This document shows positions 16,103-36,530 of a DNA stretch of 64,000 bases, in pieces. Source of the DNA: Myxococcales bacterium (GTDB lineage Bacteria > Myxococcota_A > Polyangia > Polyangiales > Polyangiaceae); the NCBI GenBank assembly GCA_016720545.1, contig JADKKK010000003.1, positions 217,516 to 281,515 of the forward strand. The letters are read 5' to 3'. Made by a program: the position numbers and the translations under genes. Each line of letters starts with the position of its first letter. The stretch's first letter is position 1. The notes under the pieces are model-generated. The model had not been told where the DNA came from. It made no database searches and saw only the letters and a list, made by a program, of their open reading frames with translations.

Positions 16103-16123
16103 TCAACAACCTTTCTACACCGG

Positions 16124-17035: not shown

Positions 17036-17036
17036 G

Positions 17037-17921: not shown

Positions 17922-19789
17922 ACGTAGGGCTCCCCGGGCTTCACGAGCCCCATCACGATGAACGTATCGAGGAACGACGGCAAGTAGCCCGTGGCGCGGA
18001 ACTCACCCACGACCTTGCCGCCTGGGCCCGTGCCCGTGCGCACGAAGGCGAAGATGTGGCGCAGCTCGATGTCGCCCGATTCGCGATCGAGGCCGGTCAC
18101 CTCGCTTATCGCGGTCACCTTGCGCGAGCCGTCGGAGAGGCGGCTCTGCTGGACGATCATGTTCACGCTCCCCGCGATCTGCTCGCGGATCGCGCGGACC
18201 GGCAGGTCGAGGCCCGACATGAGCACGAGCGTCTCGAGGCGGTTGATGGCCTCGCGCGGGGAGTTCGCGTGGGTCGTGGTCATCGACCCGTCGTGTCCCG
18301 TGTTCATGGCCTGGAGCATGTCGAGCGCCTCGCCGCCGCGGCACTCGCCGACGACGATGCGGTCGGGGCGCATACGCAGGGCGTTCTTCACGAGGTCGCG
18401 GATGGTGTACTCGCCGCGCCCCTCGAGGTTCGGCGGGCGGGTCTCGAGCGAGACGACGTGCGGCTGCTGCAGCTGGAGCTCGGCCGCGTCTTCGATGGTG
18501 ACGATGCGATCTTCCTCGGGGATCGAGGCGGAGAGCACGTTGAGCAGCGTGGTCTTCCCGCTGCCCGTGCCGCCCGAGATGACGATGTTCTTCTTCGCGA
18601 CCACGCAGCGCGTGAGGAAGCGGCCCATCTGCGTGGTCATCGAGCCGTAGTTGACGAGCTTCTCGAGCGTGAGCGGCACCTTCGAGAACTTGCGGATGGT
18701 GATGCACGCACCGCGGAGCGCGATGGGCTTGATGACCGCGTTCACGCGGGAGCCGTCTTTGAGGCGCGCGTCGACGAGCGGCGACGACTCGTCGATGCGT
18801 CGGCCGAGCGGCGTGACGATGCGCTCGATGACCGCGCGCACGCGCTCGTCGTCGGTGAACCGAGCCTCCGACAGCATGAGCTTGCCGCTGTTCTCGATGT
18901 AGATCGTGTTGGGATCCACGACCATGATCTCGCTGACCTTGGGGTCGGAGAGGAAGCGCTCCAGCGGCCCAAGGCCCAGGGCCTCGTCGGAGAGCTCGCC
19001 GATGAGCGTGTCGCGGTCGATCTCGGGCGGGATCTTCAGCGCCATGTTCGCCACGATCTGGCGGAGCGCGGTGAGCACCTTCGGGCGCATCGAGGGGTCG
19101 TCGAGCTTCTTCGCGTCGATGGTGGCGAGATCGAGGTGCTCGAGGAGCGCCTTGTGGATCTCGCGGCGCATTTCGACGTCTTTTCTTCGCTCTTCGTCGC
19201 GGGGCCGCGACGGCATGAGCTGCGCCTGCATCGCCGGGTTCTGCCCGAGCGCCTGGGGAGGGAGCGGGGGCGCCACGCCGCGCGTCTGCGCGTGGTGCTG
19301 CTGCATGTGCGCGGGCACCTGCCCCGACATGCCCATGTGACCCTGCTGGCCGCCGTGCTGCCCGTGCTGCCCTCCGTGCGCCCCCGGCTGACCCATGTGC
19401 GGGGGCATCTGCGAGGGCATCGGCGGCGGCGCCATCGGCGGCAGGCCCGTCCGCGGGCGGGTCTGCGGCGGCGGCGGCGCCTGCGGCGCGTCGCCCGGGA
19501 AGAACGCGACCGTGAAGTCGCCGAGCACCACCGGTGTGCCGAACGGCACCTCGATCGCCTCGCGCTTCAGCAGAATGCCGCCGGCGAGCGTGCCGTTCGT
19601 GGAGACGTCCTCGACGAGGATCGACTGCGGCCCAATCTGCACGACCGCGTGCTGCCGGGACACGAGATCGCTCTCGAGCCGGAGCACGCACTGCGCGTGA
19701 CGCCCGATGGAGATGGGTCCGGTGACGGCCATCGTCTCCTGACGCTGGCCCTGAGACTCCGACTGGATGAGGACCCGAACCGAGGTCAT
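17918..19789 (-). CDS. FHA-domain-fused CpaF/TadA-family secretion ATPase
   Basis: The N-terminus is a canonical FHA ('[30 protein letters not shown]...DVSTNGT'). A ~170-aa Pro/Gln/His/Met-rich low-complexity linker follows. The CpaF core comes next, with Walker A ('[10 protein letters not shown]') and '[32 protein letters not shown]'. An AGGAG ribosome-binding site lies 6 nt before the ATG. Confidence 0.85.
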
Positions 19790-19828: not shown

Positions 19829-19888
19829 GCTACTTGGCCGCTTACTTGGCCGCTTACTTGGCCGCTTACTTGGCCGCTTACTTGGCCG
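19829..19888. repeat. 12-bp tandem direct repeat (cttacttggccg) x~5
   Basis: Four perfect units plus one degenerate unit lie immediately 3' of the secretin gene. The rightmost unit supplies the secretin stop codon (TAA), and each further unit carries TAA in the same frame. The repeats are in the intergenic space before the FHA-CpaF gene. Confidence 0.75.
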
Positions 19889-21206
19889 ATGGGGGAGCCT
19901 TCGGGAAGGCCTCCACGTTGTCGATGTCCCCCGAGTAGTCCTTGAAGCTGTTCAAGGCGTTGTTGATGATCTCGAGCGAGCTCTTCGGCACCGAGTCCAC
20001 GACGCTGGGGATGATGAACACAGCGCCTTCGGTCTCGGCGTTGTCCCAGCGCTGGCTCCCGAAGAGCGCCCCGACGACGGGCAGCTGCGCGAGGCCCGGC
20101 AGGCCCGCGCTGTCGCGGCGACGGGTCTGGGTCTTGATTCCCGAGAGGACGAGCGCTTGGCCAAGCTTCAGCGTGACGAGGGTCTCGAGCTTGGTGGTCG
20201 AGCGCCCCGGCACCGTGCCCGAGGCCGCCGGCGTGAGGTCGGCCACATCGGCCGCGAGCTTGATCTCGACGTCCTTCGAGTTGACGTCGTACCGCGGCAG
20301 CACGGTCACGTTCGTGCCGAACTGCACCTTGACGAGGCCTACCGAGTTCGCGGTGACCTGCTGGAAGTTCTGCTCGCCGCCGCTCTGGAAGGTGGCCTCG
20401 GAGCCGTTCGACGTGATGACCGTCGACTGCTTCATGATGCGCACCCAGCCGTAGCGCGACCCGATGTCGAGGCGCGGCATGGGCTGGTTCACGATGTTCG
20501 CCTCGGCGCGCGTGGCGGTCTTGGCGATGAAGTCGAAGTCGATGCGCGTGGCGACGATCTGCTGGCCTTGGCCGGAGACGCCGCCGATGGCGTCGGGCCA
20601 CCCGATGCCCACCGTGTAGTTCCAGCTCTTCTCGTACTGGACGAAGTAAAAGTCGAGTCGCATCAACAGCTTACGGTCGGCGGCGCCCTGCCCCACCGTG
20701 ACCACCGACTCGACCTGCCCTTGATACAGCGAGGCGATCTGCTGGATGCGCTTGGAGTCGGATTCGCTCGAGACGCCGCCCTCGATGAACACGCGGCCGC
20801 CCACTCGACGCACCCGAATGCCCGGGATGCCCTCGAGGAGCTGCACGAGCTCCTTCTCGACCACCTGCGGCGGGCGCTGAGCCACCGAGATGTCGTACGT
20901 CACCTGCGACTTGTCCTTGCGGATGAGGAGCAGCGTGGTGGAGCCGGGCTTCACGGCGCGGAGCACGAACTGCGACTTGTCGTCGGTGAGCTGCACGCTC
21001 ACGATGCCGGCCTGACCCTCGGTGTACTGGTCGATGCCGGACGCGGGGATGGTCTTGGTCTCGCCGATGGCGAGCGCGATGTCCTCGCGCTTCTGCGAGC
21101 CCTGCGCCGCGGCGGCGCGAGGCACGATGGAGAGCGAGATCGCCGAGGCGACCCCCATCGCCCCCGCGAGCCAGAAGATACGTGTGGAGCGCTTCAAGCT
21201 AAGCAT
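19878..21206 (-). CDS. Secretin, CpaC/RcpA-like outer-membrane channel
   Basis: The internal ATG gives a signal peptide ('MLSLKRSTRIFWLAGAMGVASA'). The C-terminal secretin domain reads '...LVLSGIKTQTRRRDSAGLPGLAQLPVVGALFGS...AVFIIPSVV'. Its start overlaps the CpaB stop (TGATG). The upstream 170 aa of the track ORF are rejected. Confidence 0.75.
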   Translation of the reverse strand: MLSLKRSTRIFWLAGAMGVASAISLSIVPRAAAAQGSQKREDIALAIGETKTIPASGIDQYTEGQAGIVSVQLTDDKSQFVLRAVKPGSTTLLLIRKDKSQVTYDISVAQRPPQVVEKELVQLLEGIPGIRVRRVGGRVFIEGGVSSESDSKRIQQIASLYQGQVESVVTVGQGAADRKLLMRLDFYFVQYEKSWNYTVGIGWPDAIGGVSGQGQQIVATRIDFDFIAKTATRAEANIVNQPMPRLDIGSRYGWVRIMKQSTVITSNGSEATFQSGGEQNFQQVTANSVGLVKVQFGTNVTVLPRYDVNSKDVEIKLAADVADLTPAASGTVPGRSTTKLETLVTLKLGQALVLSGIKTQTRRRDSAGLPGLAQLPVVGALFGSQRWDNAETEGAVFIIPSVVDSVPKSSLEIINNALNSFKDYSGDIDNVEAFPKAPPSAK

Positions 21207-22033
21207 CACGGGTTCTGTCCTCCGCCACCGATCACGGTGGGCCCCCTGGGTGTACGCACGCCAGGGATGGTGGCCCGCTGCTCGGGCTTCAAGATTGCGT
21301 CCATGTTGATGTCGACCAGACCGACCGTGGTCTTGTTGTCCTCGGGGTTGCGGACCGCGACCGCGAGGCGGCCACGCTCGGCGGCGAGGGCGAGGATCTG
21401 GGCCTCCGGGAGCGTGAGGCTCAGCGTGAGGAGGTTCTCGCGATCGGCCGACTTGTCGCGGCTCTCGCTCGCCTCGACCGACGTGTCGACGCCCGTCGCG
21501 AGCACGAGGACGCGCTGGAGGAGCACCACCGCGTTCTTCGCCTCGCTGATGCCGCCGGCGCCGAGGACGCCGATGACGTCGACGTAGTCGCCCGGGCGGA
21601 TGAGCGCGATGCTCGAGTCGTCGCGGGCGGTGCGGATCGACACCGCGCGGTAGCCCGGCTGCACGAGCACGCTGAGCTCCTTGCGGTCCTCGTTCGCCGT
21701 GGCGAGGTCGGTCCACATGAGGGTCTGACCGGCCTTCACGGTGGTGCCCACGCGGAGGTTCAAGATCTTCGACTTCTCGGCCTCCTTCACGGAGCGCTCT
21801 TCGACGTAAGCGATCGGGATCTCGCGCGTCGCGATGTTGTCTTCGCTCAGCGCCTTGCCGCGATCGACCTGCTTGACGACGGTGAGCACGCGCACGCGCT
21901 CACCGCCGGAGGCCTCGACCTCGAAGCGGCGCTGGTACAGAAAGAGCAGGAAGATCCCGAGGATGCCGACCACGACGGCGATGGCGAGGGCGCGACGATT
22001 CACGAAGTGGCCTCCGCGTGGGCGTCCGAGCAC
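21206..22033 (-). CDS. CpaB-like Flp pilus assembly protein (SAF domain)
   Basis: It has an N-terminal TM ('ALAIAVVVGILGIFLLFLY') and CpaB/RcpC-like sequence, and lies immediately upstream of the secretin. Confidence 0.65.
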   Translation of the reverse strand: MLGRPRGGHFVNRRALAIAVVVGILGIFLLFLYQRRFEVEASGGERVRVLTVVKQVDRGKALSEDNIATREIPIAYVEERSVKEAEKSKILNLRVGTTVKAGQTLMWTDLATANEDRKELSVLVQPGYRAVSIRTARDDSSIALIRPGDYVDVIGVLGAGGISEAKNAVVLLQRVLVLATGVDTSVEASESRDKSADRENLLTLSLTLPEAQILALAAERGRLAVAVRNPEDNKTTVGLVDINMDAILKPEQRATIPGVRTPRGPTVIGGGGQNP

Positions 22034-22249: not shown

Positions 22250-25177
22250 TCAGAAGCTCACGCTCACGTTCGCGAGGAAGCTGCGCCCGTTCTGCAGGAT
22301 CGTGCGCTGGCGGAACTCGCGGCTCGGAATCGATTCGTAGCGGGAATCCGCGAGGTTGTACGCGCCCACGGCGTACCGAGCGTTCAGGCGCTCGATCTCG
22401 CCGGAGAACACGAGGTCGCCGACGATGCCCGCGCGCGACGAGCCCTGGGGCGGGTCGGTCACTTCGTTGTCCGAGTCGAAGCGCGGCCCCTCGACCGAGA
22501 CGCGCATCATGGCCATCAGCGATCTCCCCACGATCGGCGCCGCGCCCTTCACCGAGCCGAGCACCACCGGCGAGTTGGGGACCTGGCGGAGCGTTGGAGC
22601 GTCGAGGTACCGCGCCTTCTGCACCGAGACGGTGGCGCTGGCCATGAAGCCCTGACGCCACTCGCGTCGCAGCTCCGCCTCGCCACCCGCGACGAGGACG
22701 GGCGAGTCGCTGTTCTCGTAGCGGAGCTTGCCCGCCGAGATCTCCTTCAGCTCGATCAGGCCGCTGACGTAGTTCGTGTATCCTGCAAGGAGCGCGACGA
22801 GCGTCGGCGAAATTCGCTGCGACACCTCGACCTCGCCCGAGGTGACCTGCTCGGGCTTCAGGTCCGCGGCGGCGGCCCGATCGGAGCCGTTCGAGAAGAG
22901 CTCGTAGACGCTCGGCGAGCGGAACGCCTTGCCGCCGAGCAGCTTGATCTTTCCGCCCTTCCACGTGTCGAAGATCAGCGCGAGGCGCGGGTTCGTCGCG
23001 CCGAGCGGATCGAAGGCGACGTTCGAGTAGTAGTCGACGCGGGCGCCCGCGGAAATCTTCACGGCCTTCACGGGCGTGATGTCGCCGACCAGGTAGCCGG
23101 CGGCGTTCATGTAGGGGTCGTTGCGGTTCGTGTAGACCTGCGACGCGTCGGCCGCGAACTGCCTCGCCTGGAGGTGCCCGATGAGCTCGGCGCCGACGGT
23201 GATGCGCAGGGAGTCGGCGGGCTTCAGGACGAGGCGCTGCTCGCCGCCGATCCACTTCCCGTAGAACACCTCGGTCTCGAGGCTCGGGCGCGGATCAGAC
23301 CCGTAGGTGCCGTAGTAGTTGTAGAGGTTCAGGTGCACGCGCGAGAGGCTCTCCACGCGCTTGCCGAGGTTGGGCTCGACGCGCAGCTCGACGAGCCCGC
23401 GTGTGTCGCGGACCTTGCTGCGCGGGTCGCCGAGGACCGACTCGTACGCGCCGGTGGGGATGCTCTTGGTCCGATGCGACAGCATCCACTGCACCGTGAT
23501 GAAGCGCCACCAGGCACGCCCCCCGATCGAGCCGGCGCTGAAGCCATCCGCGTTGCGGACGTTGCCGTCGGACGGGAGGCCGTCGGCCCCGAGCTCGGGG
23601 TCCGTCGCGCGGGGGTCGTTCCGGTACTCGGGGAAGTAGAAGTCCCGGCCGCCGCTCCGGGCGATCGCGAGGGAGGTCCACACGCCCCCGTCTTCGCCTA
23701 GCCGCAGAACCCCGGTCGCGCGCGCACGACCGACGCCGTCGAGCGCGGTGCCTCCGGCGACCTCTCCGTGCGTGCGCACCTGACGGCTGCGAGTGACGAG
23801 GTTGATGACACCGAAGAACGCACCGGTACCGTAGAGGACGGACCCCGGGCCTCGGACCACCTCGATGCGGTCGATGTCGTCGAGGTCCACACGGGCGTGG
23901 AACCCCACCAGGGACGAGCCGGCGTAGTTGTCGTTCGTGGACTGCCCGTCGATCGTCACCAGGATGCGATTGCCATAGTCGCCGGGCCTCGAGAAGCCAC
24001 GCACGCCGACCGCTTCGTAGTTTCGATCGTCGCTCAGGTACATGCCGCGCACACCACGCACGGCCTCCGAGATGGTGGGGTAGCCCATCGCGCGGAGCTC
24101 GGCGCCGGTGATGATGGTGACCGACGCGGGCGCGTCCTCCACCGACTCGAGCGAGCGCGAAGCCGCGGCGACCTCGTCGAGCTCGAGCAGCTCGGCCTCC
24201 ACCTTGGCCTGAGTCTGCTTCCGCACCCTGACCTTGCGGACCACGGCGCGGTAGCCGCCCTTCTCGACGCGCACCTCATGTTCACCTTCGGTGATCGACA
24301 GCACGGCGGGGGTGAATCCGCTCGCGTTGCCGTCGACCGTCACCAGCGCTTCGCGGACGTCAGCGGACACGAGGAGCGTGCCGAACACGGCGGCGAGGCG
24401 CGGACGCACGACGGTGGTCGCGTTCGCGGCGATCTCGGCCGCCACCTCGACTCCCTGAAATCCGTTCTTCGTGACGTACAGCGTCCGGCGGCCCATCGGC
24501 AGGCGCTCCGTGCACGGGATCACGCAGAGCGGCTTCGCGTCCTCCGGAGCGAGCCGAACTTCCGCGCCGGTCGGGTCGCCCTCGACCCGAAGAGTCCCGA
24601 AGATTGGCGCGAGCGGGATTCGAACGGTCGTGTCGGTGCCGAGCTTCAGCTCGACCCCCTCGACCTTGCCGGGCTCGTGGGCCGCTCGCTCGCCGAGGAA
24701 GGTGTAGCGGCCGGCAGGCAGCGCGAGGACCATGGGCGTCTGCCCGCGCGCTCCGAGGTCCTTGCGGTCGATGAAGAGCGTCGCGCCTGGCGGGGTCGAC
24801 TCCACGCGGACGACCGCGACGAGCGGCCTGATGCGCGCGATGGCGTCGCCGATGCGAGTCCGGATCGCGGGGTCGGGCTCTCCGTCCAGCGCGCGCTGGT
24901 AGTAGCGGTACGCGTCCGCCGGCTGCTTCAGCTGCTCGTAGGTCCGCGCGATGTTGAAGAGCACGTTCTTGTTGGGAACGAGCCTGTTGGAGGCCAGAAA
25001 ATGCTCGAGCGCGCCGTTGAAGTCGCCGACCTCGTAGCGCTTCGCTGCGAGCCGAAACTGGAAGTCCGCCTCGTCGGCGACGTCGTCGGCGTAGGCCACG
25101 GCGGACACGCCGAAGAGGCCCACCAGTGAGAGGGCTGTCAGTCCGAGGCGGAGAACGCGCGGAGCCTTGCGGAACAT
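22250..25177 (-). CDS. TonB-dependent-receptor-like outer-membrane barrel with N-terminal TPR and three PEGA-like domains
   Basis: It has a signal peptide, then TPR ('YEVGDFNGALEHFLASN...YEQLKQPADAYRYYQRAL') and three PEGA/carboxypeptidase-regulatory-like repeats. A TonB-dependent-receptor plug follows ('DAPASVTIITGAELRAMGYPTISEAVRGVRGMY...RGFS') and then a long beta-barrel ending in Phe. Confidence 0.75.
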   Translation of the reverse strand: MFRKAPRVLRLGLTALSLVGLFGVSAVAYADDVADEADFQFRLAAKRYEVGDFNGALEHFLASNRLVPNKNVLFNIARTYEQLKQPADAYRYYQRALDGEPDPAIRTRIGDAIARIRPLVAVVRVESTPPGATLFIDRKDLGARGQTPMVLALPAGRYTFLGERAAHEPGKVEGVELKLGTDTTVRIPLAPIFGTLRVEGDPTGAEVRLAPEDAKPLCVIPCTERLPMGRRTLYVTKNGFQGVEVAAEIAANATTVVRPRLAAVFGTLLVSADVREALVTVDGNASGFTPAVLSITEGEHEVRVEKGGYRAVVRKVRVRKQTQAKVEAELLELDEVAAASRSLESVEDAPASVTIITGAELRAMGYPTISEAVRGVRGMYLSDDRNYEAVGVRGFSRPGDYGNRILVTIDGQSTNDNYAGSSLVGFHARVDLDDIDRIEVVRGPGSVLYGTGAFFGVINLVTRSRQVRTHGEVAGGTALDGVGRARATGVLRLGEDGGVWTSLAIARSGGRDFYFPEYRNDPRATDPELGADGLPSDGNVRNADGFSAGSIGGRAWWRFITVQWMLSHRTKSIPTGAYESVLGDPRSKVRDTRGLVELRVEPNLGKRVESLSRVHLNLYNYYGTYGSDPRPSLETEVFYGKWIGGEQRLVLKPADSLRITVGAELIGHLQARQFAADASQVYTNRNDPYMNAAGYLVGDITPVKAVKISAGARVDYYSNVAFDPLGATNPRLALIFDTWKGGKIKLLGGKAFRSPSVYELFSNGSDRAAAADLKPEQVTSGEVEVSQRISPTLVALLAGYTNYVSGLIELKEISAGKLRYENSDSPVLVAGGEAELRREWRQGFMASATVSVQKARYLDAPTLRQVPNSPVVLGSVKGAAPIVGRSLMAMMRVSVEGPRFDSDNEVTDPPQGSSRAGIVGDLVFSGEIERLNARYAVGAYNLADSRYESIPSREFRQRTILQNGRSFLANVSVSF

Positions 25178-25251: not shown

Positions 25252-26775
25252 TCACCGCTGGAGGATGATGTCCCCGGTCGCGGGCGGCTTCACGGCGGGC
25301 ACCGGCGAGGACGGCGCCGCCTTGGGGTGCCCCGCCGCGTTCGTGTGAGCGCCCTTGGTAGGCGACGCGGATGCGGTGGGCGCGGCGCTCGCCGAGGCGA
25401 GGGCGCTCGCGGACGGTGCGGACGCCAAGGCGACCGGCAGGGCAGTCGCGCTCGGCGGGCTCACGAGGGTGGCCGCCGGCGGCGGGGCGGGCGCGGTGGC
25501 CTGCGTCGCACGCCAGACGAGGACGATCGCGAGCGAAAGCAGCCCGAGCGCCGTGGCGCTGGTCGAGATCACGAGGGCGATGTTGCGGCTCGGTGGCGGG
25601 GCGCCGTGGACCTCGGGGCCGGTCGCGGAGGCCATCGAGAGCCCGGTGCCAGGGGTCGAGCTGCGCTCCTGGCCGGCGAGCGTCACGCCCACGACAGGGG
25701 CGGCGGCGGAGGCCACCAGGCTAGGCTGCGGCCCGCCCGTGGGAAGCGACGCGTCGGCGGTGGGCAACTGCGGGAGGTCGAGCGGGGCGAGCTCGCCCGT
25801 GACCATGAGCGGGCCCCTCGAGAGCTGTCGCTCGATGACGGCGCGGATACGCGCGCGCTCCTCCGCGAAGTGCTCGGCGACCGCCGTGCCCACTGGGCGA
25901 AGCTGCGGGGGCGGGTCGAGCGTCGCCAAGTACGCGTCGATCGGGGCGCGCATCGCGGCCGCGGTGGAGAACCGGTCGTCCGGCTTGGGCGCGAGCGCGC
26001 GAGCGCACACCTCAACCAGCGCCGGTGGCGCGTCTGGGGCGAACTCGGTGAGCTTCGGCAGCTCGCCCATCGCGAGGTAGTGGATGATCCCTGCGTCCGG
26101 GAGATCCTTCCACATGCGTCGGCCCGCGACGGCCTCCCACAGCATGATGCCCACGGCGAAGATGTCCGCGCGGCGATCCACCTTACGGCCCAGCGCCTGC
26201 TCGGGCGCCATATAGGAAATTTTTCCTTTGATGACGCCGGTTTGCGTCTTCTGCGACGACGTCGCCGCCTTCGCGACGCCGAAGTCGACGACCTTCACCT
26301 GGCCGTCGAAGGTGACGAAGACGTTGTGCGGGCTCACGTCGCGATGCACGACGTTGAGCGGCGTCCCGTCCCAGTCGACCGCCTCGTGCGCGGCGTGGAG
26401 GCCCTCGAGCACCTCGGCGAGGACACGGACGTGAGAGTCGACCGAGAGCGCTCCTTTGCGAATGAGGCGGGAGCGCACGTTGGAGAGGGGCTGCCCCTCC
26501 AGGTACTCCATGACCAGCATGTACTTCCCGTCGCCGTCCATGACCTCGTAGGTCTGGACGATGTTCGGGTGGTTTAGGCGCGCCGCGAGCCGCGCCTCGT
26601 CGAGGAACATCTCGCGAAACTCGTACTCCTCCGCGAGCTCTGCCTTCAGCTGCTTGACGACGACGAGCTTGGTGAAGCGGCTCGGCCCCTCGGCGGCGGC
26701 GAGGTAGACCGTCGCCATGCCTCCCCGCCCAAGCTCCCCCAGGAGGCGGTATTTTCCAAGGGTAGGCTCCGTCAT
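25252..26775 (-). CDS. Ser/Thr protein kinase with TM segment and Ala/Pro-rich extracytoplasmic tail
   Basis: The kinase motifs are present ('LGRGGMATVYLA', 'VVK', 'HRDVSPHNVFV', 'DFGVAK', 'YMAPEQ'), followed by a TM ('IALVISTSATALGLLSLAIVLV'). Confidence 0.85.
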   Translation of the reverse strand: MTEPTLGKYRLLGELGRGGMATVYLAAAEGPSRFTKLVVVKQLKAELAEEYEFREMFLDEARLAARLNHPNIVQTYEVMDGDGKYMLVMEYLEGQPLSNVRSRLIRKGALSVDSHVRVLAEVLEGLHAAHEAVDWDGTPLNVVHRDVSPHNVFVTFDGQVKVVDFGVAKAATSSQKTQTGVIKGKISYMAPEQALGRKVDRRADIFAVGIMLWEAVAGRRMWKDLPDAGIIHYLAMGELPKLTEFAPDAPPALVEVCARALAPKPDDRFSTAAAMRAPIDAYLATLDPPPQLRPVGTAVAEHFAEERARIRAVIERQLSRGPLMVTGELAPLDLPQLPTADASLPTGGPQPSLVASAAAPVVGVTLAGQERSSTPGTGLSMASATGPEVHGAPPPSRNIALVISTSATALGLLSLAIVLVWRATQATAPAPPPAATLVSPPSATALPVALASAPSASALASASAAPTASASPTKGAHTNAAGHPKAAPSSPVPAVKPPATGDIILQR

Positions 26776-26867: not shown

Positions 26868-27260
26868 TCAGGGAGACGGGCACTTCCCGCGGCAGGCGGC
26901 CCGAACCGCGTGGCACTTGTCGATGCAGGGCTTCAGCTTGTCGGCGCACTTGCTGAGGCACTTGTTGTCGTTCAGCGTCTTCTGCTTCTTCGCCTCTTCC
27001 TCGGTCGTCTTGCAGGCCTTGAAGCAGGGCTCTTCCTTCTTCAGACAGAGCGACGAACAGTAGGTGCTGCCCTGGTCGCAGCGCTGCCCGCACGCCGTGG
27101 CCTGCTCGGCGTCGGCGCAGGCCTGCTCGACCAGCTCCACGCCCTCGGACGACAAGTCAGCCGACCCCGCACAGCGCACCGAGCTCGAGGGGGAGAAGGC
27201 GAGCAGCCAGGCGCCGAAGAAGGTCGCGACCGAGCCGCTGATCCGCGCGAGGGAGCTCAT
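26868..27260 (-). CDS. Small secreted Cys-rich protein (about 14 Cys, repeated CX3C pairs)
   Basis: The internal ATG gives a signal peptide ('MSSLARISGSVATFFGAWLLAFS'). The mature ~105 aa contain paired CX3C motifs ('PCFKAC', 'KCLSKC', 'PCIDKC', 'ACRGKC'). The ATG overlaps the upstream gene's stop (ATGA). Confidence 0.5.
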   Translation of the reverse strand: MSSLARISGSVATFFGAWLLAFSPSSSVRCAGSADLSSEGVELVEQACADAEQATACGQRCDQGSTYCSSLCLKKEEPCFKACKTTEEEAKKQKTLNDNKCLSKCADKLKPCIDKCHAVRAACRGKCPSP

Positions 27261-28237
27261 TGGAGATCGAGGTCCTGGGGCTTGACGCCGGGGACCACTT
27301 CCATGATCGACATGGCGGTGGTTCCAGAGCCGGCCGCGCGCCGCGCGGTGATGATCACCTGGGTGCCGCCGTTGAAGTACGCCCGCATCGTGCCTTCGGG
27401 GTGCTCGGGGGCGATCGAGCGCCAGTCGCCCGTGCTGGCGGCCCACTTGTCGTAGAAGACGCCCACGTCCTCTGGCGCCAGCGAGGTCTCGTAGATGCGC
27501 ACGCCATACGGGCTGCCGACGACCTCGGCCGTCATGAGGCGCTTGGCGCCGTTGGGGCGCGGGAGGAGCGAGTCGCTGCCGGGAGCGGTGCCGTCCGTGT
27601 TGGCGATCTTCGCGAAACTAAAGGAGTTGTCGGTCCAGGCGGTGACCACGCGGGTGCCGTGGGTGGTCTCCCGCGCATAGACGTACCGAAGCTTGCCGAG
27701 GTCGCCAAGGTCCTGCGACTCGGCGAAATTCTTGAGGGCGTCCGTGGCGCTGTTGGACGTGCGCTCTCCCTTGATGAGGCACATCACCGCGCCCTCGCCC
27801 GTGCTCCCCTGGGTGCGGAGGATGCCCGAGTGCATCGTCTTCGGCAGCTTGTGCCCGTCGACCACCATGTTCGCCTTGGGCACCTGCGACCAGAGCTCTC
27901 CAAGGGCGCCTTTGTCTTGCTCGCAGCGGCCCTCATAGTCGTCCAGAATCGACTTCACCGTCGCGTCGGTCATGCCTTCGCGAAGGAAGAAGCTCTGGCC
28001 GTTGAGGCGGACTTCACTGGCGCCGTCGCTCGCGAGCGGCGCGATCTCGCGGCCAAACTTGAGGGTCGCCTTGCCGATATCGGCCTTAGCGGTGTGGGTC
28101 GCGAACAGGCCAACGCCGAGACCCGCCACGAGCACGACCGCAGCTGCGCGGCCCGCGCCGCGGATTTGCTGTGCGCGGGCGCTGTTGAAGCCCTTGGCGT
28201 TTCGCCAGGCGATGAGCAGGGGGCCGAGCATGTTCAT
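27257..28237 (-). CDS. Hypothetical N-terminally anchored membrane/periplasmic protein
   Basis: It has a TM near the N-terminus ('AAVVLVAGLGVGLFA') and is co-operonic with the pseudopilin genes. No recognisable domain was found. Confidence 0.5.
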   Translation of the reverse strand: MNMLGPLLIAWRNAKGFNSARAQQIRGAGRAAAVVLVAGLGVGLFATHTAKADIGKATLKFGREIAPLASDGASEVRLNGQSFFLREGMTDATVKSILDDYEGRCEQDKGALGELWSQVPKANMVVDGHKLPKTMHSGILRTQGSTGEGAVMCLIKGERTSNSATDALKNFAESQDLGDLGKLRYVYARETTHGTRVVTAWTDNSFSFAKIANTDGTAPGSDSLLPRPNGAKRLMTAEVVGSPYGVRIYETSLAPEDVGVFYDKWAASTGDWRSIAPEHPEGTMRAYFNGGTQVIITARRAAGSGTTAMSIMEVVPGVKPQDLDLQ

Positions 28238-28280: not shown

Positions 28281-28796
28281 CTAGTTCGCCGCGCCAGCGA
28301 TCTTACCCTTAACGTAGCCGAACATGCCGCTGAAGCTGCCGTCTTCCGGTGTCTCGTTGCACACGGCGGTCGACGTGAGACTGTTGACCTTGAGCGAGAG
28401 CCCCATCCCCCGGGTGGAGGTGTTGGGCTTCGGATTGATGACGGTGGTCGAGGCGTACGTGACCTGGGTCTTCGCCATGAAGCCGCTGGTCTTCGCCTGC
28501 CCTGGAGCGTTCGCGAGGGCCTCGGCCGACTGGCTGTCGGCGGCGCCGACGCCGCCTCCCACCCCCGCGGAGCCCTGCGAGCGGCTCGTGTTTCCGTACT
28601 GAATCACCTGCCGCTGGCACTGGTGAGAGGCGTAGTCGAGCGCCATGGAGCGCGCCTGCTGGTTCTGCGTGAGCTTCACCGTGTACGCGTTGCCCATCAT
28701 CATGGTGAGTCCGAGGAAGGAGACCATCACCGGCAGCACCACCGCCGCTTCCACCATCGCCGCTCCCCGAAGGGAGAATTTGCGGGACTTCTTCAT
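28281..28796 (-). CDS. TadE-like pseudopilin
   Basis: The N-terminus ('RGAAMVEAAVVLPVMVSFLGLTMMMG') is the TadE/TadF signature. The ATG at 28796 is in frame. Confidence 0.65.
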   Translation of the reverse strand: MKKSRKFSLRGAAMVEAAVVLPVMVSFLGLTMMMGNAYTVKLTQNQQARSMALDYASHQCQRQVIQYGNTSRSQGSAGVGGGVGAADSQSAEALANAPGQAKTSGFMAKTQVTYASTTVINPKPNTSTRGMGLSLKVNSLTSTAVCNETPEDGSFSGMFGYVKGKIAGAAN

Positions 28797-28812: not shown

Positions 28813-30273
28813 CTAGTGGAGCATCTGGGGGATGACCGGGCCCGTGGGGTCGATGCCGAGCGCGCCGTTGATTGCGCCGCTGGCCGCCGCGGTGCCCTTC
28901 TTGATGGTGTCGTCCACGATGGCGCCAGCGAACGGACCGCCCTTACCGATGGCGCCTTCAATCGACTTGTACGCGTCGCTGCCCTTGATGGAGTCGCCGA
29001 GCTTGCCGCCGAGGAAGTCGGCCACCGGGCCGATGAAGAGGTCGGCGAGGGCGCCGCCGAGCAGCGAGCCGAGCGACGGAGACTTCACGTGGCGGATACG
29101 GGCCATCCACCGCATGTTGAAGGTGACCTCGGTCGAGCTGTCCCCATTGCACTTGGCGTCGGCAAACTTCGCGTCGCAGTCGTAGTAGAACTCGGCCTGG
29201 GCGGAGTAGATGGGGGCCTGGGGGACGCGGCCGCGAGCGGCGACCGCTTGGGAGTACACGGCGCCCTTGCTCCCGATGGCGAGCGCCACCTTGCTCTCCG
29301 CGAAGCCTTCGTCGTACTTCGTAGGCGTGAGAATCGACCAGATTTGCAGCCAGTCGTTGCCATTCGACGCGGGGCCGTACCACTTCTTCCAGCCGAGGTT
29401 CTGGTTCTTCCACACACCTCCGTTGCAGTAGCCGCGCCCTTCGACGAAGCGCCCGCCGACCCAGGAGATGATGGAGCCGAGGAAGCTCGGGAAGAAGCTG
29501 CCCACTGAGTCGGTGACGCGCAGGCAGAGCTCTGCGTTTTCGGCGAGCGTGACCGGAAGGCCGAGCTTCATGCCGAAGGTGGTGGGCTTCGCGCCGCCGG
29601 CCGCTGGGGCGCCGGCCGCGCCGGTCGCGGGCACCGACGGAGGCTTGCCGCCGCCAAAGTACTTGTCGAGGTTCATCGAGAAGTTGAACCCCGGGATATT
29701 CGACGGCCCGATCGCGAGCCCGGTCGTCTTGTAGTCGGACCCCACGCTGTAGCCAGCGTAGGTGCCGTACCACGGGTAGCCGATGGCCACCGCGGTGCCG
29801 GTCAGGCTGAGCGCCGGCAGGCCAATGTTCACGGCCGAGGCCTCGTAGGCGTTCTTCGCGACGGTGACCGCGCGGTCGGCCGCGGTGGCGACCGGCAAGG
29901 CTTCGCAGCAGAAGGCGCACCCGACGATGGTGGCAGCGCAGGTGGTGAGCAGCGTGACGGCGAGATCGAGCAGGTCCTTCAGGACGCACAGGATCACCCA
30001 GATCAGCGCGATGACGTACATCACGATGTTGATCACGCTGATGATGTTCATGCCGCGGGCGTGGACGACGGCCGACGTGAAGGCCACGTGGTCCGCGCTC
30101 TCTTGCATGCGGTCTTTGAAGACGACGGCGTCGCCGATGCCCTTCATGAACCACATCGCGCCGATGAGGAACGTGGCCATGAAGAGGCCCATCACCATCA
30201 CGGCGCCGCGCGTGTCCTCGCGCAGGTCACGCACGTCGCGAGTTCCGAGCTGGTCGAAGGTTGCGGTTGTCAT
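28813..30273 (-). CDS. TadG-like / large membrane-anchored pilus-associated protein
   Basis: It has N-terminal TM helices and a Gly-rich C-terminus, and lies between the two TadE-like genes. Its start overlaps the stop of the upstream TadE-like gene (TGATG). Confidence 0.5.
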   Translation of the reverse strand: MTTATFDQLGTRDVRDLREDTRGAVMVMGLFMATFLIGAMWFMKGIGDAVVFKDRMQESADHVAFTSAVVHARGMNIISVINIVMYVIALIWVILCVLKDLLDLAVTLLTTCAATIVGCAFCCEALPVATAADRAVTVAKNAYEASAVNIGLPALSLTGTAVAIGYPWYGTYAGYSVGSDYKTTGLAIGPSNIPGFNFSMNLDKYFGGGKPPSVPATGAAGAPAAGGAKPTTFGMKLGLPVTLAENAELCLRVTDSVGSFFPSFLGSIISWVGGRFVEGRGYCNGGVWKNQNLGWKKWYGPASNGNDWLQIWSILTPTKYDEGFAESKVALAIGSKGAVYSQAVAARGRVPQAPIYSAQAEFYYDCDAKFADAKCNGDSSTEVTFNMRWMARIRHVKSPSLGSLLGGALADLFIGPVADFLGGKLGDSIKGSDAYKSIEGAIGKGGPFAGAIVDDTIKKGTAAASGAINGALGIDPTGPVIPQMLH

Positions 30274-30818
30274 CAGTCCACCTTGTACCTTGCGCCTTGA
30301 TTGGGCATCGTCGCTTCGGCCGTGAGGATCTTGCGAGAGCCGGGACAGATGAGTCGACCCATGGGGACCGTGCAGCTGTAGGTCGCCTGCACGCGCACCC
30401 GAACGGGTCCGTAGACGTCGGACATGCTCGAACCGTCTTGGACCGAGACGCTGACGTTCGAGACGGAGCCGCTCGTGATCCAGGGGCTCAGCGCGAGGCC
30501 GGCGGCCTGCTTGACGTCGGTGTTGCTGCCCTTTTCGCCGGGGTTGGTGGGCTTCTTCACCATCACGATGGCCGCGCGCGCCGCGGTGATCGCCGCGTGC
30601 TGAACGCCGAGGTTGACGGTGTAGATCTTCGCCACCTGTACGAAGGAGAAGAACGTGGTGAGCAAAGGCACGACGGCGATGACGAACTCGACCAGGGCCG
30701 CTCCGCGACGATCGTGGAGGAGCGACGCGGGCGCAGAAGCCGAGTCGGAGCTGCCGGAGTCGGCGGAGCCTGACTCATGCGGCGCAGGATTAAAAAATAC
30801 CGACCTGAGCGACTTCAT
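30273..30818 (-). CDS. TadE-like pseudopilin
   Basis: It carries the TadE signature 'RRGAALVEFVIAVVPLLTTFFSFVQV'. The ATG at 30818 was checked. Confidence 0.65.
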   Translation of the reverse strand: MKSLRSVFFNPAPHESGSADSGSSDSASAPASLLHDRRGAALVEFVIAVVPLLTTFFSFVQVAKIYTVNLGVQHAAITAARAAIVMVKKPTNPGEKGSNTDVKQAAGLALSPWITSGSVSNVSVSVQDGSSMSDVYGPVRVRVQATYSCTVPMGRLICPGSRKILTAEATMPNQGARYKVD

Positions 30819-31357
30819 TTCGACCCCCAATGGAAGGCGGTGGTCACGGCGACGCCGATAAAAATACACGGCCCCAGGCGAAACCACGTCATGGCCTCGG
30901 GCTCGACCGCCTTGCGCTTTTCTTTGGGCAAGACGGGATTGAACATCAGATAGATGGTGTTCTTCAGTGTCCTGAAGAGCTTGCCGTCGTAGGCGAGCCG
31001 CGCCGGCGCGATCACGAGCGCCGCCATGAAGGCGTACATCTCGAGCTCGAGGCCGAGCGACGGGTGGCAGAGCGCGCCAAGCGCCGCGAGGAGCTTCAAG
31101 TCGCCGCCGCCGATCGCGTTCTGGCGATAGAGGACCAGCGGGACGACCGCGGTCACACAGGCCCCTGCGACGGAGAAGCCGCCTTCAAAGGCAGCTTCGT
31201 CCGAGGCTATGCCCTGCGCAGAGGCAGCGACGAAGTGGGCGATGGGGGCGAGAAACAGCGCCGGTAGCGTCACCCAATTGGGTATCTGGCCCGACTTCAT
31301 GTCGTACACCGCAGCGATGCCACTTACGATGACCGCTGCGATGAGAAAGGGAATCAT
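30815..31357 (-). CDS. Prepilin peptidase, CpaA/TadV type (A24 family, no methyltransferase domain)
   Basis: It is a polytopic membrane protein with the two catalytic Asp regions ('AAVYDMKSGQIPN' and 'GGGDLKLLAALGA'). Confidence 0.7.
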   Translation of the reverse strand: MIPFLIAAVIVSGIAAVYDMKSGQIPNWVTLPALFLAPIAHFVAASAQGIASDEAAFEGGFSVAGACVTAVVPLVLYRQNAIGGGDLKLLAALGALCHPSLGLELEMYAFMAALVIAPARLAYDGKLFRTLKNTIYLMFNPVLPKEKRKAVEPEAMTWFRLGPCIFIGVAVTTAFHWGSK

Positions 31358-31484
31358 GGCACCATGGCTACCGAATACGGGCGCTTTTTTTTCGCGTGGC
31401 GTGTGGGTCGTGCGCGTGTCCGCGAGGACGCGGGGGCCTGCTCGGTCACCCAAGCCGAGCAGGCCGCACACACGCGCAAGCGGA

Positions 31485-31640
31485 TCAGAGCTGCTGGGTC
31501 GCGTTCGTGGCCGAGCGACCGACGACGGGGCCGAGCGCCTTGAAGGCCGCAGCGGCGAGCAGCAGGACGGCGACGAGGAGGAGCGCGTACTCGACCATGG
31601 AGGCGCCGCGGGACTTCATGCGAAGGATCTGCTTGTTCAT
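31485..31640 (-). CDS. flp: Flp/Fap-family pilin (51 aa)
   Basis: The manual translation is MNKQILRMKSRGASMVEYALLLVAVLLLAAAAFKALGPVVGRSATNATQQL. It carries the Flp motif 'G/ASMVEYAL' and has a GGAGAAG ribosome-binding site. It is absent from the ORF track only because it is short. Confidence 0.75.
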   Translation of the reverse strand: MNKQILRMKSRGASMVEYALLLVAVLLLAAAAFKALGPVVGRSATNATQQL

Positions 31641-31700: not shown

Positions 31701-31896
31701 TCAGGGGATAGGCGCCATGAGTGTGGTACGTGACGAACGATAGTCTGCGAGCATCTTCACGCCGCCGGCGGTGATCCCCACCATGGTGGGGACGGCGACG
31801 AACGTGAGGAGGAGAGCGTACTCTACCAGGACGGCGCCGCGGGCTGCGCGCGATGCGCGAGGCGGTAGGGCGGGTCGTGCGAACGCGCTTCGTCAT
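31701..31896 (-). pseudogene. flp: Second flp pilin gene with apparent +1 frameshift in the leader
   Basis: An ATG at 31896 opens 'MTKRVRTTRPTASRIARS...'. The pilin body ('RGAVLVEYALLLTFVAVPTMVGITAGGVKMLADY...') is in the +1 frame with no start codon of its own. Deleting one C in the run 'AGCCCGCGG' restores an intact Flp prepilin. The span is 196 nt, which is not a multiple of 3. Confidence 0.5.
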
Positions 31897-33785: not shown

Positions 33786-36509
33786 CTACTTCGTGCGTGG
33801 CTCGCGCGGCGGGAGGGCGGGCGCCTTTGCCTTGGTGGCCTTGGTGGCCTTGGTGGCCTTGGTGGCCTTGGTGGCCTTGGTGGCCTTGGTGGCCTTGGTG
33901 GCCTTGGCTGAGTCGCGGGTCGGCTTCGCTGCGCGGAGCTTCGTGGGGCGCTCGGGCCCGACGCGCGCCTCGAGCTTCCGGAGGCGTGTCTCGAGGTCGT
34001 GCGCGTGGGCGCGGAGCTTCTCGAGCTCCGCCTCAGCTTCGTGTGCGCCCGCTTTGCGGTCGCCCGTGAGGTCGCGGAGGACCTCGCGGAGACGGCGGCG
34101 CACACGCACGTCGTCTTCGACGCCCTCGCGGGCACGGAGGGCGCCTCGCGCGCGCGGATCGCCCATGAGCTGGAGGGCGCGCGCGACGTCTTGGCGCAGC
34201 AGCGGGTCGCGATCGTCGAGCAGCTCCTCGAGCAGCTCGCGATCGTCGCGCGCCTCGGAGAGCCTACCGATCGCGAGCGCGGCGGCTCGGCGCGCCCTCG
34301 GCGCCTGCCCGTAGCGGGTCTTGGCGCGGAGGTGGGGCAACGCGCGCGGATCGCGCAGCGACGCGAGCCCGTCGATCGCGCCGGTCCGCACAACCTCGGC
34401 CCACGAGGGGCGATCGAGGAGCTCTACGAGGTCGTCGAGGGCGCCGCCTTGGCGCGTCTTGCCGAGCGAGCGCGCTGCTTCCGCGCTGACGAAGTAGCTC
34501 GCGTCGGAGCGCGCGACGTGGGCGAGGAGCGTCGCCGCCGCCGCGGTGCGGCTCGCGCCCAGCGCCTCTGCGACGGCACGGCGGACCTTCGGCGAGGTCA
34601 CGCCGAGCGCGCGCTCGAGGGCCTCGAACGCGTCCGGCGCGCGTGAGCGGCCGAGCGCCGTGGCGCACTCGGCGCGGACACCCCAGAACTCGTGCTCGTC
34701 GTGGAGGCGCGCCGCGAGCGCGGCTCGCGTGGGGGGGTCGTCGACCCGGGAGAGGCTGCCCGCGGCGAGCCACCGACCCCGCGCCGTGGGCGCGTGGGCG
34801 AGCTGCTCGCGGAGCATGTCGAGCGGACCGCGGACGCTCACCTCGCCGAGCACCCGCAGGTCGGGATCGACGACGACGAAGCGAGGGCGACGCGGCGAAG
34901 GGAGCGCGAACACCTGGTGGCGCTGCGTGAGCTCGACTTCGAGGCGCTTCACCACCGGGCGACCGCGCTCGGTCGCGGTCGCGCAGTCGAGCACGAGCGG
35001 CGCGTGGAAGACGGAGGGCACTCCGTCGGTCGCCGCCTGCCCCTGCTTGACCGTGACGAGCAAGATGCCCTCGTCCCACGCGAACGACACCTCGAGCTCG
35101 ACGTGACCGGCCCGGTGCACGAGCTCCTCGAAGGCGCGCCCGAGGCTGCGACCCGACACGCGCTCGAGAGCGCGCTGGAGATCGCGCGTCTCGACGAGGC
35201 CCTTCGCGTGCGCGCGAAGGTAGTGCGCGACGCCGGCGAAGAAGCCGTCGTCCCCGACGGTGCGGCGCAGCACGTGGAGCACGAGCCCGCCCTTCTCGTA
35301 GAGGTGGCGGTCGAACAGATCGAGCGGGGCGTCGTAGTCGAGGCAGACCAGGGGGCGGCGGTAGCGGCCGCGCGCCTCCGCCACGTAGTTGGCGAGGTCG
35401 GTCTTGAGCCCGTACTCGTACTCGTCGAGCCCGAGGCGGTGCTCGCGGAAGAGGTGCTCGCAGAACGTCGCGAAGCCTTCGTTGAGCCACGCCTCCGACC
35501 AGTCGCGGCACGTGACCAGATCGCCGAACCACTGGTGGGCGAGCTCGTGCGCGATGAGGTCGTCGCTCGTGCCGTCGAGCGCGGCGCGCTCGTCGAGCAG
35601 CACGTGCTCGTAGAGCGTCGTCGCGGTGGTGTTCTCCATTCCCCCGAAGAAGAAGTCGGAGACGACCGCCTGCGCGTACTTGCTCCAGGGATACGGCGAC
35701 GCGAAACGATGGCCAAAGAAACGCATCATTTCCGCGGTTTGCGCGAACGTACGGCGGGCGTCGGCGGCGCGCCCCGGCGGCACGTAATACGTGAGGGGCG
35801 CGGGGCCGTCGTCCTCGAGCACCTCGAGCTCGCCGACCACCAGCGTGAGCAGGTAGCTCGGGTGAGGCTCGCTCATCTTCCAATGGAAGAGGACGCCGTC
35901 GGGGCGCGGCTCGCGCGCCGCGAGGTGCCCGTTCGAGAGCGCCGTGTAGCCCGGCGGGACGACCACCGACAGCTCGGTGGTCATCTTCACGTGGGGCTTG
36001 TCGTGGGAGGGGAAGAAGTGCCGCGCGTCCTCCTCTTGGCACTGAGTCCACGCCTGGCGTGGCAGGTGCGGGCGGTGCTCGTCGGGCTCGATGAAGTAGA
36101 GCCCGCGGCGCGGCGTGCAGGTGTACACGACGCGCACGATGGCCTCTTCGAGGTCGCCCAGCTCCACCCGGAGCGCGCAGCCGTCGTAGATGAAGTCGGC
36201 GCGGGCGCCTCCCACCTCGACCGCCGAGAGCGTGAAGCCCACGGCGTCGAGGGTGATCGCCGACGCCGTCGGGCTCACCCGGCGGACGTGCAGCGTCGCC
36301 GTGCCAGCGACCTCGTGTTTCTCGAACGAGAGGCCGAGGTCGAGCGCGAGGTGCTCGATGACGAAGGGGCGATCACGCTCGAAGTTGCGAGGGCTCGTCG
36401 CGAACGCGAACGCGAACGGGCGGCCTTGCGCGGCTTGGCTCCGCTGCTCCGTGTGTTCGGTGCCCCCGGAGAGGCACCGGCAGCGGGCGTGGAGGCGGTG
36501 CTCTCCCAT
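33786..36509 (-). CDS. pepN: M1-family aminopeptidase N with C-terminal HEAT-like repeats and (KAT)n tail
   Basis: It has the GAMEN-like motif 'GGMENTT', the zinc motif 'HELAHQWFGD' and 'WLNEGFATF'. The C-terminus ends in KATKATKAT..., encoded by a 9-bp tandem repeat. Confidence 0.8.
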   Translation of the reverse strand: MGEHRLHARCRCLSGGTEHTEQRSQAAQGRPFAFAFATSPRNFERDRPFVIEHLALDLGLSFEKHEVAGTATLHVRRVSPTASAITLDAVGFTLSAVEVGGARADFIYDGCALRVELGDLEEAIVRVVYTCTPRRGLYFIEPDEHRPHLPRQAWTQCQEEDARHFFPSHDKPHVKMTTELSVVVPPGYTALSNGHLAAREPRPDGVLFHWKMSEPHPSYLLTLVVGELEVLEDDGPAPLTYYVPPGRAADARRTFAQTAEMMRFFGHRFASPYPWSKYAQAVVSDFFFGGMENTTATTLYEHVLLDERAALDGTSDDLIAHELAHQWFGDLVTCRDWSEAWLNEGFATFCEHLFREHRLGLDEYEYGLKTDLANYVAEARGRYRRPLVCLDYDAPLDLFDRHLYEKGGLVLHVLRRTVGDDGFFAGVAHYLRAHAKGLVETRDLQRALERVSGRSLGRAFEELVHRAGHVELEVSFAWDEGILLVTVKQGQAATDGVPSVFHAPLVLDCATATERGRPVVKRLEVELTQRHQVFALPSPRRPRFVVVDPDLRVLGEVSVRGPLDMLREQLAHAPTARGRWLAAGSLSRVDDPPTRAALAARLHDEHEFWGVRAECATALGRSRAPDAFEALERALGVTSPKVRRAVAEALGASRTAAAATLLAHVARSDASYFVSAEAARSLGKTRQGGALDDLVELLDRPSWAEVVRTGAIDGLASLRDPRALPHLRAKTRYGQAPRARRAAALAIGRLSEARDDRELLEELLDDRDPLLRQDVARALQLMGDPRARGALRAREGVEDDVRVRRRLREVLRDLTGDRKAGAHEAEAELEKLRAHAHDLETRLRKLEARVGPERPTKLRAAKPTRDSAKATKATKATKATKATKATKATKATKAKAPALPPREPRTK
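33822..33910 (-). repeat. 9-bp in-frame tandem repeat (cttggtggc) x8-10 encoding (KAT)n
   Basis: There are eight perfect units at 33831-33902 plus degenerate flanking units. Confidence 0.8.
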
Positions 36510-36530
36510 CGGGCGGGGGCGTCCGCGGGC

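Follow-up and report, generated by a model that had tools for sequence, protein, structure and literature searches.

Two coupled genes behind the pilus tip genes

The window analysed here (the whole stretch of 64,000 nucleotides, nt, positions 217,516 to 281,515 of contig JADKKK010000003.1 in GenBank assembly GCA_016720545.1) comes from a Myxococcales bacterium of the family Polyangiaceae and carries, on its minus strand, a Tad pilus locus of the Kil-like kind. We focus on two adjacent genes of this locus that directly follow its minor-pilin genes: one for a protein of 326 amino acids (aa), designated P326 (27257–28237, minus strand), and one for a small cysteine-rich protein, designated CysRich (26868–27260, minus strand). 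Window coordinates are used throughout, and L001–L018, P0005, and P0013 are our labels for related loci and proteins. What these genes contribute to a tip module of the Kil-like Tad type is a pair of extra, previously undescribed components that are predicted to be extracytoplasmic.

CysRich is encoded as a 130-aa precursor that starts with MSSLARISGS, carries a Sec-type hydrophobic leader, and ends in a 74-aa core (C57–P130). An earlier note on this DNA had described about 14 cysteines arranged as repeated CX3C pairs, and this description holds: the open reading frame (ORF) has 14 cysteines (residues 30, 48, 57, 61, 68, 72, 79, 83, 101, 105, 112, 116, 123, and 127), whose spacings of 17, 8, 3, 6, 3, 6, 3, 17, 3, 6, 3, 6, and 3 residues yield six CX3C pairs. 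P326 starts with MNMLGPLL and has one hydrophobic segment followed by predicted periplasmic alpha/beta domains.

The two genes share an ATGA start/stop overlap (27257–27260, minus strand) formed by the CysRich ATG (27260–27258) and the P326 TGA (27259–27257). This overlap is kept in 10 of the 11 loci with DNA (the window, L001–L005, L011, and L014–L016), an 11-nt gap taking its place in L013; at the P0013 locus, the gene calls likewise overlap by 4 nt. Such an arrangement indicates probable translational coupling of P326 and CysRich, as the earlier note had read the junction of CysRich with its membrane-anchored neighbor, and through the conserved overlap CysRich might be made in fixed proportion to P326.

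Both are real genes under purifying selection. The GC content at third codon positions (GC3) is 0.93 in CysRich, with a second-position value (GC2) of 0.55, and 0.89 in P326, with second positions at ~0.5. In a genome of 68% GC such as this one, that contrast between codon positions marks coding sequence. Compared with four orthologous loci, the ratio of nonsynonymous to synonymous substitution rates (dN/dS) was 0.21–0.32 for the whole CysRich gene, 0.08–0.18 over its residues 48–130, and 0.04–0.38 for P326. The earlier note had allowed that the CysRich call could be a GC-driven open-frame artefact if the ORF lacked homologues and coding-type conservation. Nothing specific supports this explanation, yet the window, at 68% GC, does hold many spurious long ORFs. 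We rejected it, and consider its chance negligible, on the GC3 of 0.93 with a GC2 of 0.55, the homologues and the purifying selection found (dN/dS of 0.08–0.3 against the four orthologues), the cysteine framework conserved between relatives of 26–30% identity, and the conserved ATGA coupling.

No described family includes P326 or CysRich, and the relatives of CysRich make up a very small family confined to one lineage. Word-seeded searching through 5.8 billion proteins returned five homologues of CysRich and 12 of P326. It missed the divergent CysRich relatives, which were recovered by reading ORFs downstream of distant P326 homologues (L011, L004, and L005 are among those found in this way) and by an exhaustive hidden Markov model (HMM) scan of 1.84 billion representative proteins, where only eight clusters, all of 112–133 aa, appeared at E ≤ 1e-3. 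CysRich matched no Pfam family (DUF326 included) and no NCBIfam family at E ≤ 0.1, and its family profile found nothing among the sequences of the Protein Data Bank (PDB) at E ≤ 10. For P326, 13 members gave no Pfam match at E ≤ 1 beyond noise, DUF1795 and PsbP included, and no NCBIfam match; its profile returned noise only from the PDB sequences, and the 54 matches of a P326 profile search are all unnamed or "hypothetical". One P326 homologue bears a weak precomputed PF27226 (AF_1845) label; a local Pfam scan did not recover it, and we disregarded it.

Cysteine framework and predicted hairpin of CysRich

All 14 aligned CysRich sequences share the framework CX3CX6CX3CX6CX3C-X17-CX3CX6CX3CX6CX3C, with 12 cysteines in two blocks of six. 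The mean column identity of the alignment is 40%, and the framework is kept down to 26–30% identity. Its only invariant columns are the 12 block cysteines and P78, with A47, D98, K108, P111, and R120 nearly invariant. C30 and C48 are clade-specific extra cysteines confined to the close relatives of the window's protein; most members have no cysteine near the leader, and the distant members have no lipobox. The idea that CysRich is a lipoprotein or a pilotin was rejected, as C30 is preceded by V-R rather than by a lipobox and is absent from most distant members.

Each six-cysteine block falls within an 80-degree arc of an ideal helix. Across the family, the core (from the first block cysteine to the C-terminus) is 72–86 aa long, of which 12 are cysteines and about 11–20% are hydrophobic residues, and it has a net charge of +3 to +7 and a pI of 8.3–8.9. 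With hydrophobic residues at only about 12% of the CysRich core, the cysteines themselves must form the helix-helix interface. The best AlphaFold2 model of mature CysRich, computed from a 6-sequence alignment, is a hairpin with helices at precursor residues 48–83 and 100–126; its predicted local distance difference test score (pLDDT) is ~82–86 in the helices and 67 on average overall, and the four other models scored 41–54.

The 3-6-3-6-3 spacing, identical in both blocks, is what an antiparallel six-disulfide ladder requires, and it suggests a ladder in which C57 would pair with C127, C61 with C123, C68 with C116, C72 with C112, C79 with C105, and C83 with C101. CysRich is predicted to be a long, disulfide-stapled helical hairpin with this probable pairing; the idea of stapled hairpins, already voiced in the earlier note, gains support from the mirror-compatible spacing, the 80-degree arcs, and the hairpin in the best AlphaFold2 model. 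P78 and P111 separate a distal unit (C79/C83 with C101/C105) from the proximal four-cysteine units, and the CysRich relative of L011 carries a 14-residue insertion at exactly the P78/P111 level. Together, these features point to a proline-marked hinge there, between what would be a distal two-disulfide unit and a proximal four-disulfide unit. Irrespective of what CysRich does, such a ladder of three nested CX3C units makes an unusual and probably hyper-stable mini-scaffold.

The leader contains a hydrophobic stretch at residues 7–24 that resembles a signal peptide, and no conserved twin-arginine motif was found in the leaders of the CysRich family. CysRich may be a Sec-exported small protein of ~80–100 aa that folds in the oxidising periplasm. 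For the mature length of about 105 aa given in the earlier note to hold, signal-peptide cleavage would have to fall close to residues 25–29.

The CysRich relative of L005 (2572–3180, plus strand), which comes from a more distant "Myxococcales" metagenome-assembled genome (MAG), has 202 aa with a ~90-residue insert in the hairpin loop and a partly altered cysteine pattern. It keeps the ATGA overlap with its own P326 homologue, and its C-terminus, CRAKCP, resembles the CRGKCP of the window's protein.

Cysteine-lined helices are also known from the Csp copper storage proteins, which are single-chain four-helix bundles with a twin-arginine translocation (Tat) leader when exported (PMC12510493). 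Like the Csps, some of which are extracytoplasmic, CysRich has many cysteines on one helix face. It could accordingly be imagined as a Csp-like metal-thiolate protein for Cu(I) or Zn, possibly a dimeric four-helix bundle with 24 inward cysteines: its cysteines face one side of the helix with few other core residues, and Csps offer the precedent of Cys-lined helical bundles that are in some cases exported (PMC12510493). We consider such a protein very unlikely. CysRich belongs to neither DUF326 nor any NCBIfam family at E ≤ 0.1 and matches no PDB sequence at E ≤ 10, the solved Csp1 and Csp3 included; two helices are predicted and not four; exported Csps use Tat in order to fold before export, whereas the CysRich leader is of the Sec type and has no conserved RR; its alignment contains no conserved histidine or methionine; and the gene sits in a pilus locus rather than in a copper homeostasis context.

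The arrangement C1X3C2-Xn-C3X3C4 is that of the alpha-hairpinins, short plant peptides with four (rarely six) cysteines and two to three disulfides, which cross-brace a helix-loop-helix; they are often cationic and often derive from vicilin or modular precursors (PMC11591084). This motif occurs three times in CysRich (C79X3C83-X17-C101X3C105, C68X3C72...C112X3C116, and C57X3C61...C123X3C127). Unlike the alpha-hairpinins, however, CysRich nests the three units in one continuous 74–86-aa hairpin with 12 cysteines, and it is a bacterial protein made as a single-copy precursor with a Sec leader from a gene in a pilus locus; no sequence homology to alpha-hairpinins was detected.

The likeness raises the possibility that CysRich is secreted and acts on its own, as an antimicrobial peptide or a protease inhibitor in the manner of the alpha-hairpinins, merely co-expressed with the pilus genes and not carried by the pilus. 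The nested motifs, the cationic character, and the predicted helix-loop-helix would suit such a peptide, and alpha-hairpinins built on this motif and fold act against microbes or inhibit trypsin (PMC11591084). Nevertheless, secretion from a diderm requires passage through the outer membrane, for which only the Tad machine is encoded in the vicinity; such a peptide would leave the strict coupling of its gene to that of P326 unexplained; and CysRich has no sequence homology to known antimicrobial peptides. On balance, we find this role quite unlikely.

Predicted structure of P326

The sole hydrophobic segment of P326 lies at about residues 31–48 (15-residue Kyte-Doolittle mean of 2.47), in agreement with the single membrane segment that the earlier note had assigned to the 326-aa partner. 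It is preceded by a basic, partly conserved N-terminus and followed by a conserved A50-x-A52 motif, and P326 has either an N-in signal anchor or a long cleaved signal peptide. C105 and C153 are invariant in the P326 alignment, which is consistent with a periplasmic location.

The remaining ~270 residues are predicted to be alpha/beta (pLDDT of 73, with a core of 80–93) and comprise more than one alpha/beta unit. The predicted fold resembles Mog1/PsbP/DcrB and matches DcrB, the N-domain of PA1624, and the type VI secretion system (T6SS) effector chaperone SciW/EagR. P326 is predicted to have the alpha/beta sandwich of the Mog1p/PsbP-like proteins at a sequence identity of just 4–10%, and it is larger than these comparators (DcrB/DUF1795, the PA1624 N-domain, and SciW/EagR). 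The role of P326 may be that of an adaptor or chaperone serving the tip complex from the periplasm.

Gene order and distribution

The related loci all come from MAGs assigned to Polyangiaceae, Polyangiales, Labilithrix, or unclassified "Myxococcales", and the CysRich family was found only in Polyangia MAGs. The gene order is TadV-TadE-TadG-TadE-P326, then, where present, CysRich and a cassette of a kinase and a TonB-like gene, and then CpaB and the secretin. Every CysRich member with upstream sequence directly follows a P326 homologue, and the P326-CysRich pair always comes after a TadE-TadG-TadE (KilM/N/L-like) triplet; in L012, a 5'-truncated contig, CysRich stands directly before CpaB and the secretin. 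The earlier note had proposed a search for homologues near other Tad or Kil loci, and CysRich relatives do occupy the same position of the Tad locus. The cassette is present in the window, L001, L003, and L014/L015 and absent in L002, L004, L012, L013, and the P0013 locus. No CysRich gene is present in L006–L010, L017, and L018; there, CpaB or unrelated genes come straight after P326.

That note had also placed the pair at the distal end of a flp-tadV-tadE-tadG-tadE operon. Upstream of the pair, the genes for Flp, the prepilin peptidase, TadE, TadG, and TadE were indeed all found, and the link to the pilus tip genes has become stronger, as the pair always follows TadE-TadG-TadE and P326 does so even in an orphan cluster. 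The distal end has to be given up: the same strand runs on past CysRich through the kinase, the TonB-like gene, CpaB, CpaC, FHA-CpaF, and TadB/TadC, and in several relatives CpaB comes directly after CysRich.

The orphan cluster is that of L017 (2533–6996; GCA_023431345.1, contig JAEYWK010000272.1), where TadV-TadE-TadG(562 aa)-TadE-P326 is followed by unrelated genes and no CpaB or secretin lies downstream, a layout similar to that of Myxococcus, which has tip genes in clusters of their own. As P326 follows the triplet there without a secretin, it belongs with the minor-pilin module and not with the secretin module. In Polyangia, P326 might effectively be the fourth gene of the minor-pilin "Tip" module, in which TadE-TadG-TadE would correspond to KilM/N/L.

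P326 is broadly conserved, and CysRich forms a tiny family with an unusually regular 12-cysteine hairpin design. When P326 is placed on a neighbour-joining tree, the loci that carry CysRich group into a single monophyletic clade, within which CysRich is retained as P326 diverges to 36–40% identity. This single clade points to one gain followed by stable retention, and in it P326 would have acquired CysRich as a partner or cargo.

The gene order can also be read in terms of a purely periplasmic assembly cofactor. CysRich would then, together with P326, form a scaffold for folding, holding, or priming the minor-pilin tip or couple it to CpaB and the secretin, and it would never leave the cell. 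The gene does lie between the tip genes and cpaB-cpaC, with conserved coupling to the predicted periplasmic Mog1/PsbP/DcrB-like protein, and strong purifying selection is expected of a structural part; proteins of the Mog1/PsbP family have been described as associates of membrane-anchored complexes (PMC7716261). However, most P326-bearing loci assemble without CysRich, nothing ties CysRich physically to CpaB or the secretin, and spending six disulfides on 74 residues would seem unusual if the protein were to remain periplasmic. We regard a purely periplasmic role as somewhat unlikely.

Comparison with known pilus systems and proposed role

With the Kil system of Myxococcus xanthus the locus shares a prepilin peptidase, TadE-TadG-TadE, CpaB, the secretin, an FHA-ATPase, and an FHA/PrgH-like gene. 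Genetics, supported by modelling, has shown that KilL, KilM, and KilN (TadE/F/G-like) form the disulfide-rich heterotrimeric Tips of Kil pili, the disulfides being predicted (Herrou et al. 2025, PMC12075869). According to the Kil literature, Tip4 may associate with an unidentified toxin, and toxin delivery by the machine is called unclear. In cluster II of M. xanthus, MXAN_4657 and MXAN_4656 follow kilL4 and occupy the P326/CysRich position, a likeness by position only; the two Kil papers describe the genes at this position as of "unknown function" and nothing more.

Unlike KilL/M/N, P326 and CysRich are not pilins, having no PF07811 TadE match and no class III leader. The G/A-x-x-V-E motif does not occur in their N-termini, and PF07811 matches only the flanking TadE genes. 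Non-pilin factors encoded in pilus operons are known to dock on minor pilins, as TcpF does on TcpB and CofJ on CofB in type IVb pili and PilC/PilY1 on minor pilins in type IVa pili; the pilus tip carries or releases such factors, and by this precedent CysRich may be a tip cargo. CysRich has in common with TcpF/CofJ and PilC/PilY1 that its gene lies inside a pilus operon beside those of minor pilins, that it carries a Sec leader, and that it is not a pilin; it is similar to them in neither sequence nor fold, and the docking of P326 or CysRich at the tip is conjecture on our part. The role of the terminal beta-strand in Tad pili was assigned to TadG/CpaL itself in PNAS 2026 work.

The reading that we favour, with a probability of roughly 40%, is that CysRich is a six-disulfide hairpin made together with P326 and serves the Kil-like pilus tip, either as an accessory or as its cargo. 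The cationic, hyper-stable CysRich rod would reach the cell surface with the pilus tip, to be displayed there or released along with it. As regards the action of Kil-like Tad pili on their targets, P326 and CysRich are plausible candidates for the missing factor at the tip. Most of the hosts are uncultured and represented by MAGs, and the function proposed here is inferred throughout.

Several points weigh against a tip accessory or cargo. Most P326-bearing Tad loci have no CysRich, which suggests that it is dispensable for basic tip function. The selection on CysRich is strongly purifying, not diversifying, and the adjacent genes include none that looks like an immunity gene, both of which are untypical of polymorphic toxins. 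Of the roles that the earlier note had considered, those of an adhesin, an effector, and a toxin found no support. The AlphaFold2 model of CysRich is shallow (6 sequences) with a mean pLDDT of 67, the rest of the models are poor, and structure searches with the model return generic helical hairpins only. In L003/P0005, the protein would hold an odd number of cysteines (13) after signal cleavage. Finally, the proposal includes three steps that we infer, namely a P326-CysRich complex, disulfides over metal thiolates, and export past the periplasm.

A bolder form of the tip-cargo proposal would see in CysRich the first cargo to be identified for a Kil-like Tad pilus, a six-disulfide, cationic "super alpha-hairpinin" that P326 would load on the KilLMN-like tip and that, pushed into or onto the prey envelope, would kill or puncture on contact. 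We hold this to be unlikely; if it were true, CysRich would be a pilus-delivered bacterial counterpart of the cysteine-stabilised hairpin antimicrobials of plants.

Other genes of the Tad locus

The genes of the locus lie on the minus strand and include the complement of a Kil-like Tad system, namely a prepilin peptidase, Flp, TadE-TadG-TadE, CpaB, a secretin, FHA-CpaF, TadB/C, and an FHA/PrgH-like protein. The Flp pilin (31485–31640, minus strand) has 51 aa and a G/ASMVEYALLL motif. A second Flp-like frame (31701–31892, minus strand; …RGAVLVEYALLLTFVAVP…) lies upstream of it; this frame has no ATG, GTG, or TTG before its processing motif and may be a pseudogene or have an unusual start. In L014/L015, two small genes (55 and 52 aa) are called at the corresponding position.

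The prepilin peptidase, TadV/CpaA/KilA-like, is encoded at 30815–31471 (minus strand; Peptidase_A24, E = 7e-15), and the first TadE-like minor pilin of the tip triplet at 30273–30887 (minus strand; PF07811, E = 3.4e-5). The listed ORFs of these two genes overlap by 73 nt (30815–30887), and the true tadE start may be further downstream. The large TadG/KilN-like minor pilin (28813–30273, minus strand; 486 aa) has a weak N-terminal match to the Rv3654c-type TadE-like family, and its gene is conserved in all compared loci; by analogy with the Kil Tips, it is the predicted backbone of the tip complex (Herrou et al. 2025, PMC12075869). The last member of the triplet is a KilL/M-like TadE-like minor pilin (28281–28796, minus strand; PF07811 TadE, E = 8.4e-5).

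Downstream of CysRich, a spacer of 92 nt leads to the kinase gene on the same strand. A scan for promoters and terminators did not exceed what shuffling led us to expect, and it revealed no terminator-like site on the minus strand after CysRich. The first gene of the variable cassette between CysRich and CpaB encodes a Ser/Thr protein kinase of 507 aa (25252–26775, minus strand), and the second a protein of 975 aa with TPR, three PEGA, and Plug domains and a TonB-dependent-receptor-like barrel (22250–25177, minus strand). The two form a variable insertion in the Tad locus, and the architecture of the second is odd for a TonB-dependent receptor.

Next come the KilB-like CpaB/RcpC (21206–22033, minus strand; RcpC, E = 3e-19) and the KilC-like CpaC secretin (19878–21716, minus strand; Secretin, E = 1e-24). 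Their listed ORFs overlap by ~510 nt (21206–21716), and the longest-ORF starts are most likely too far upstream. A signal-peptide-like segment of CpaC (MLSLKRSTRIFWLAGAMGVASA) begins well inside the listed ORF, and its true start is probably internal.

Past CpaC, the minus strand continues with an FHA-fused CpaF ATPase, TadB, TadC, an FHA/YscD-like protein, and a second T2SSE ATPase. The two T2SSE-family ATPases lie within 13486–19789 (minus strand), and one has an N-terminal FHA domain, like KilF. The protein at 15227–16102 is similar to the FHA/YscD cytoplasmic domain, like MXAN_4649. The FHA-ATPase and the FHA/YscD-like protein are hallmarks of the Kil type, here in a Polyangiaceae genome; in M. 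xanthus, the kil genes are split over two clusters.

Upstream of the Tad locus (33786–36530, minus strand), the genes for an M1 peptidase that contains HEAT repeats and for an uncharacterised protein of ~231 aa are shared with L014/L015 and the P0013 locus, and the relatives also carry an enoyl-CoA hydratase at that upstream position. The conservation of this neighbourhood across distant relatives suggests a chromosomally stable rather than a mobile locus.

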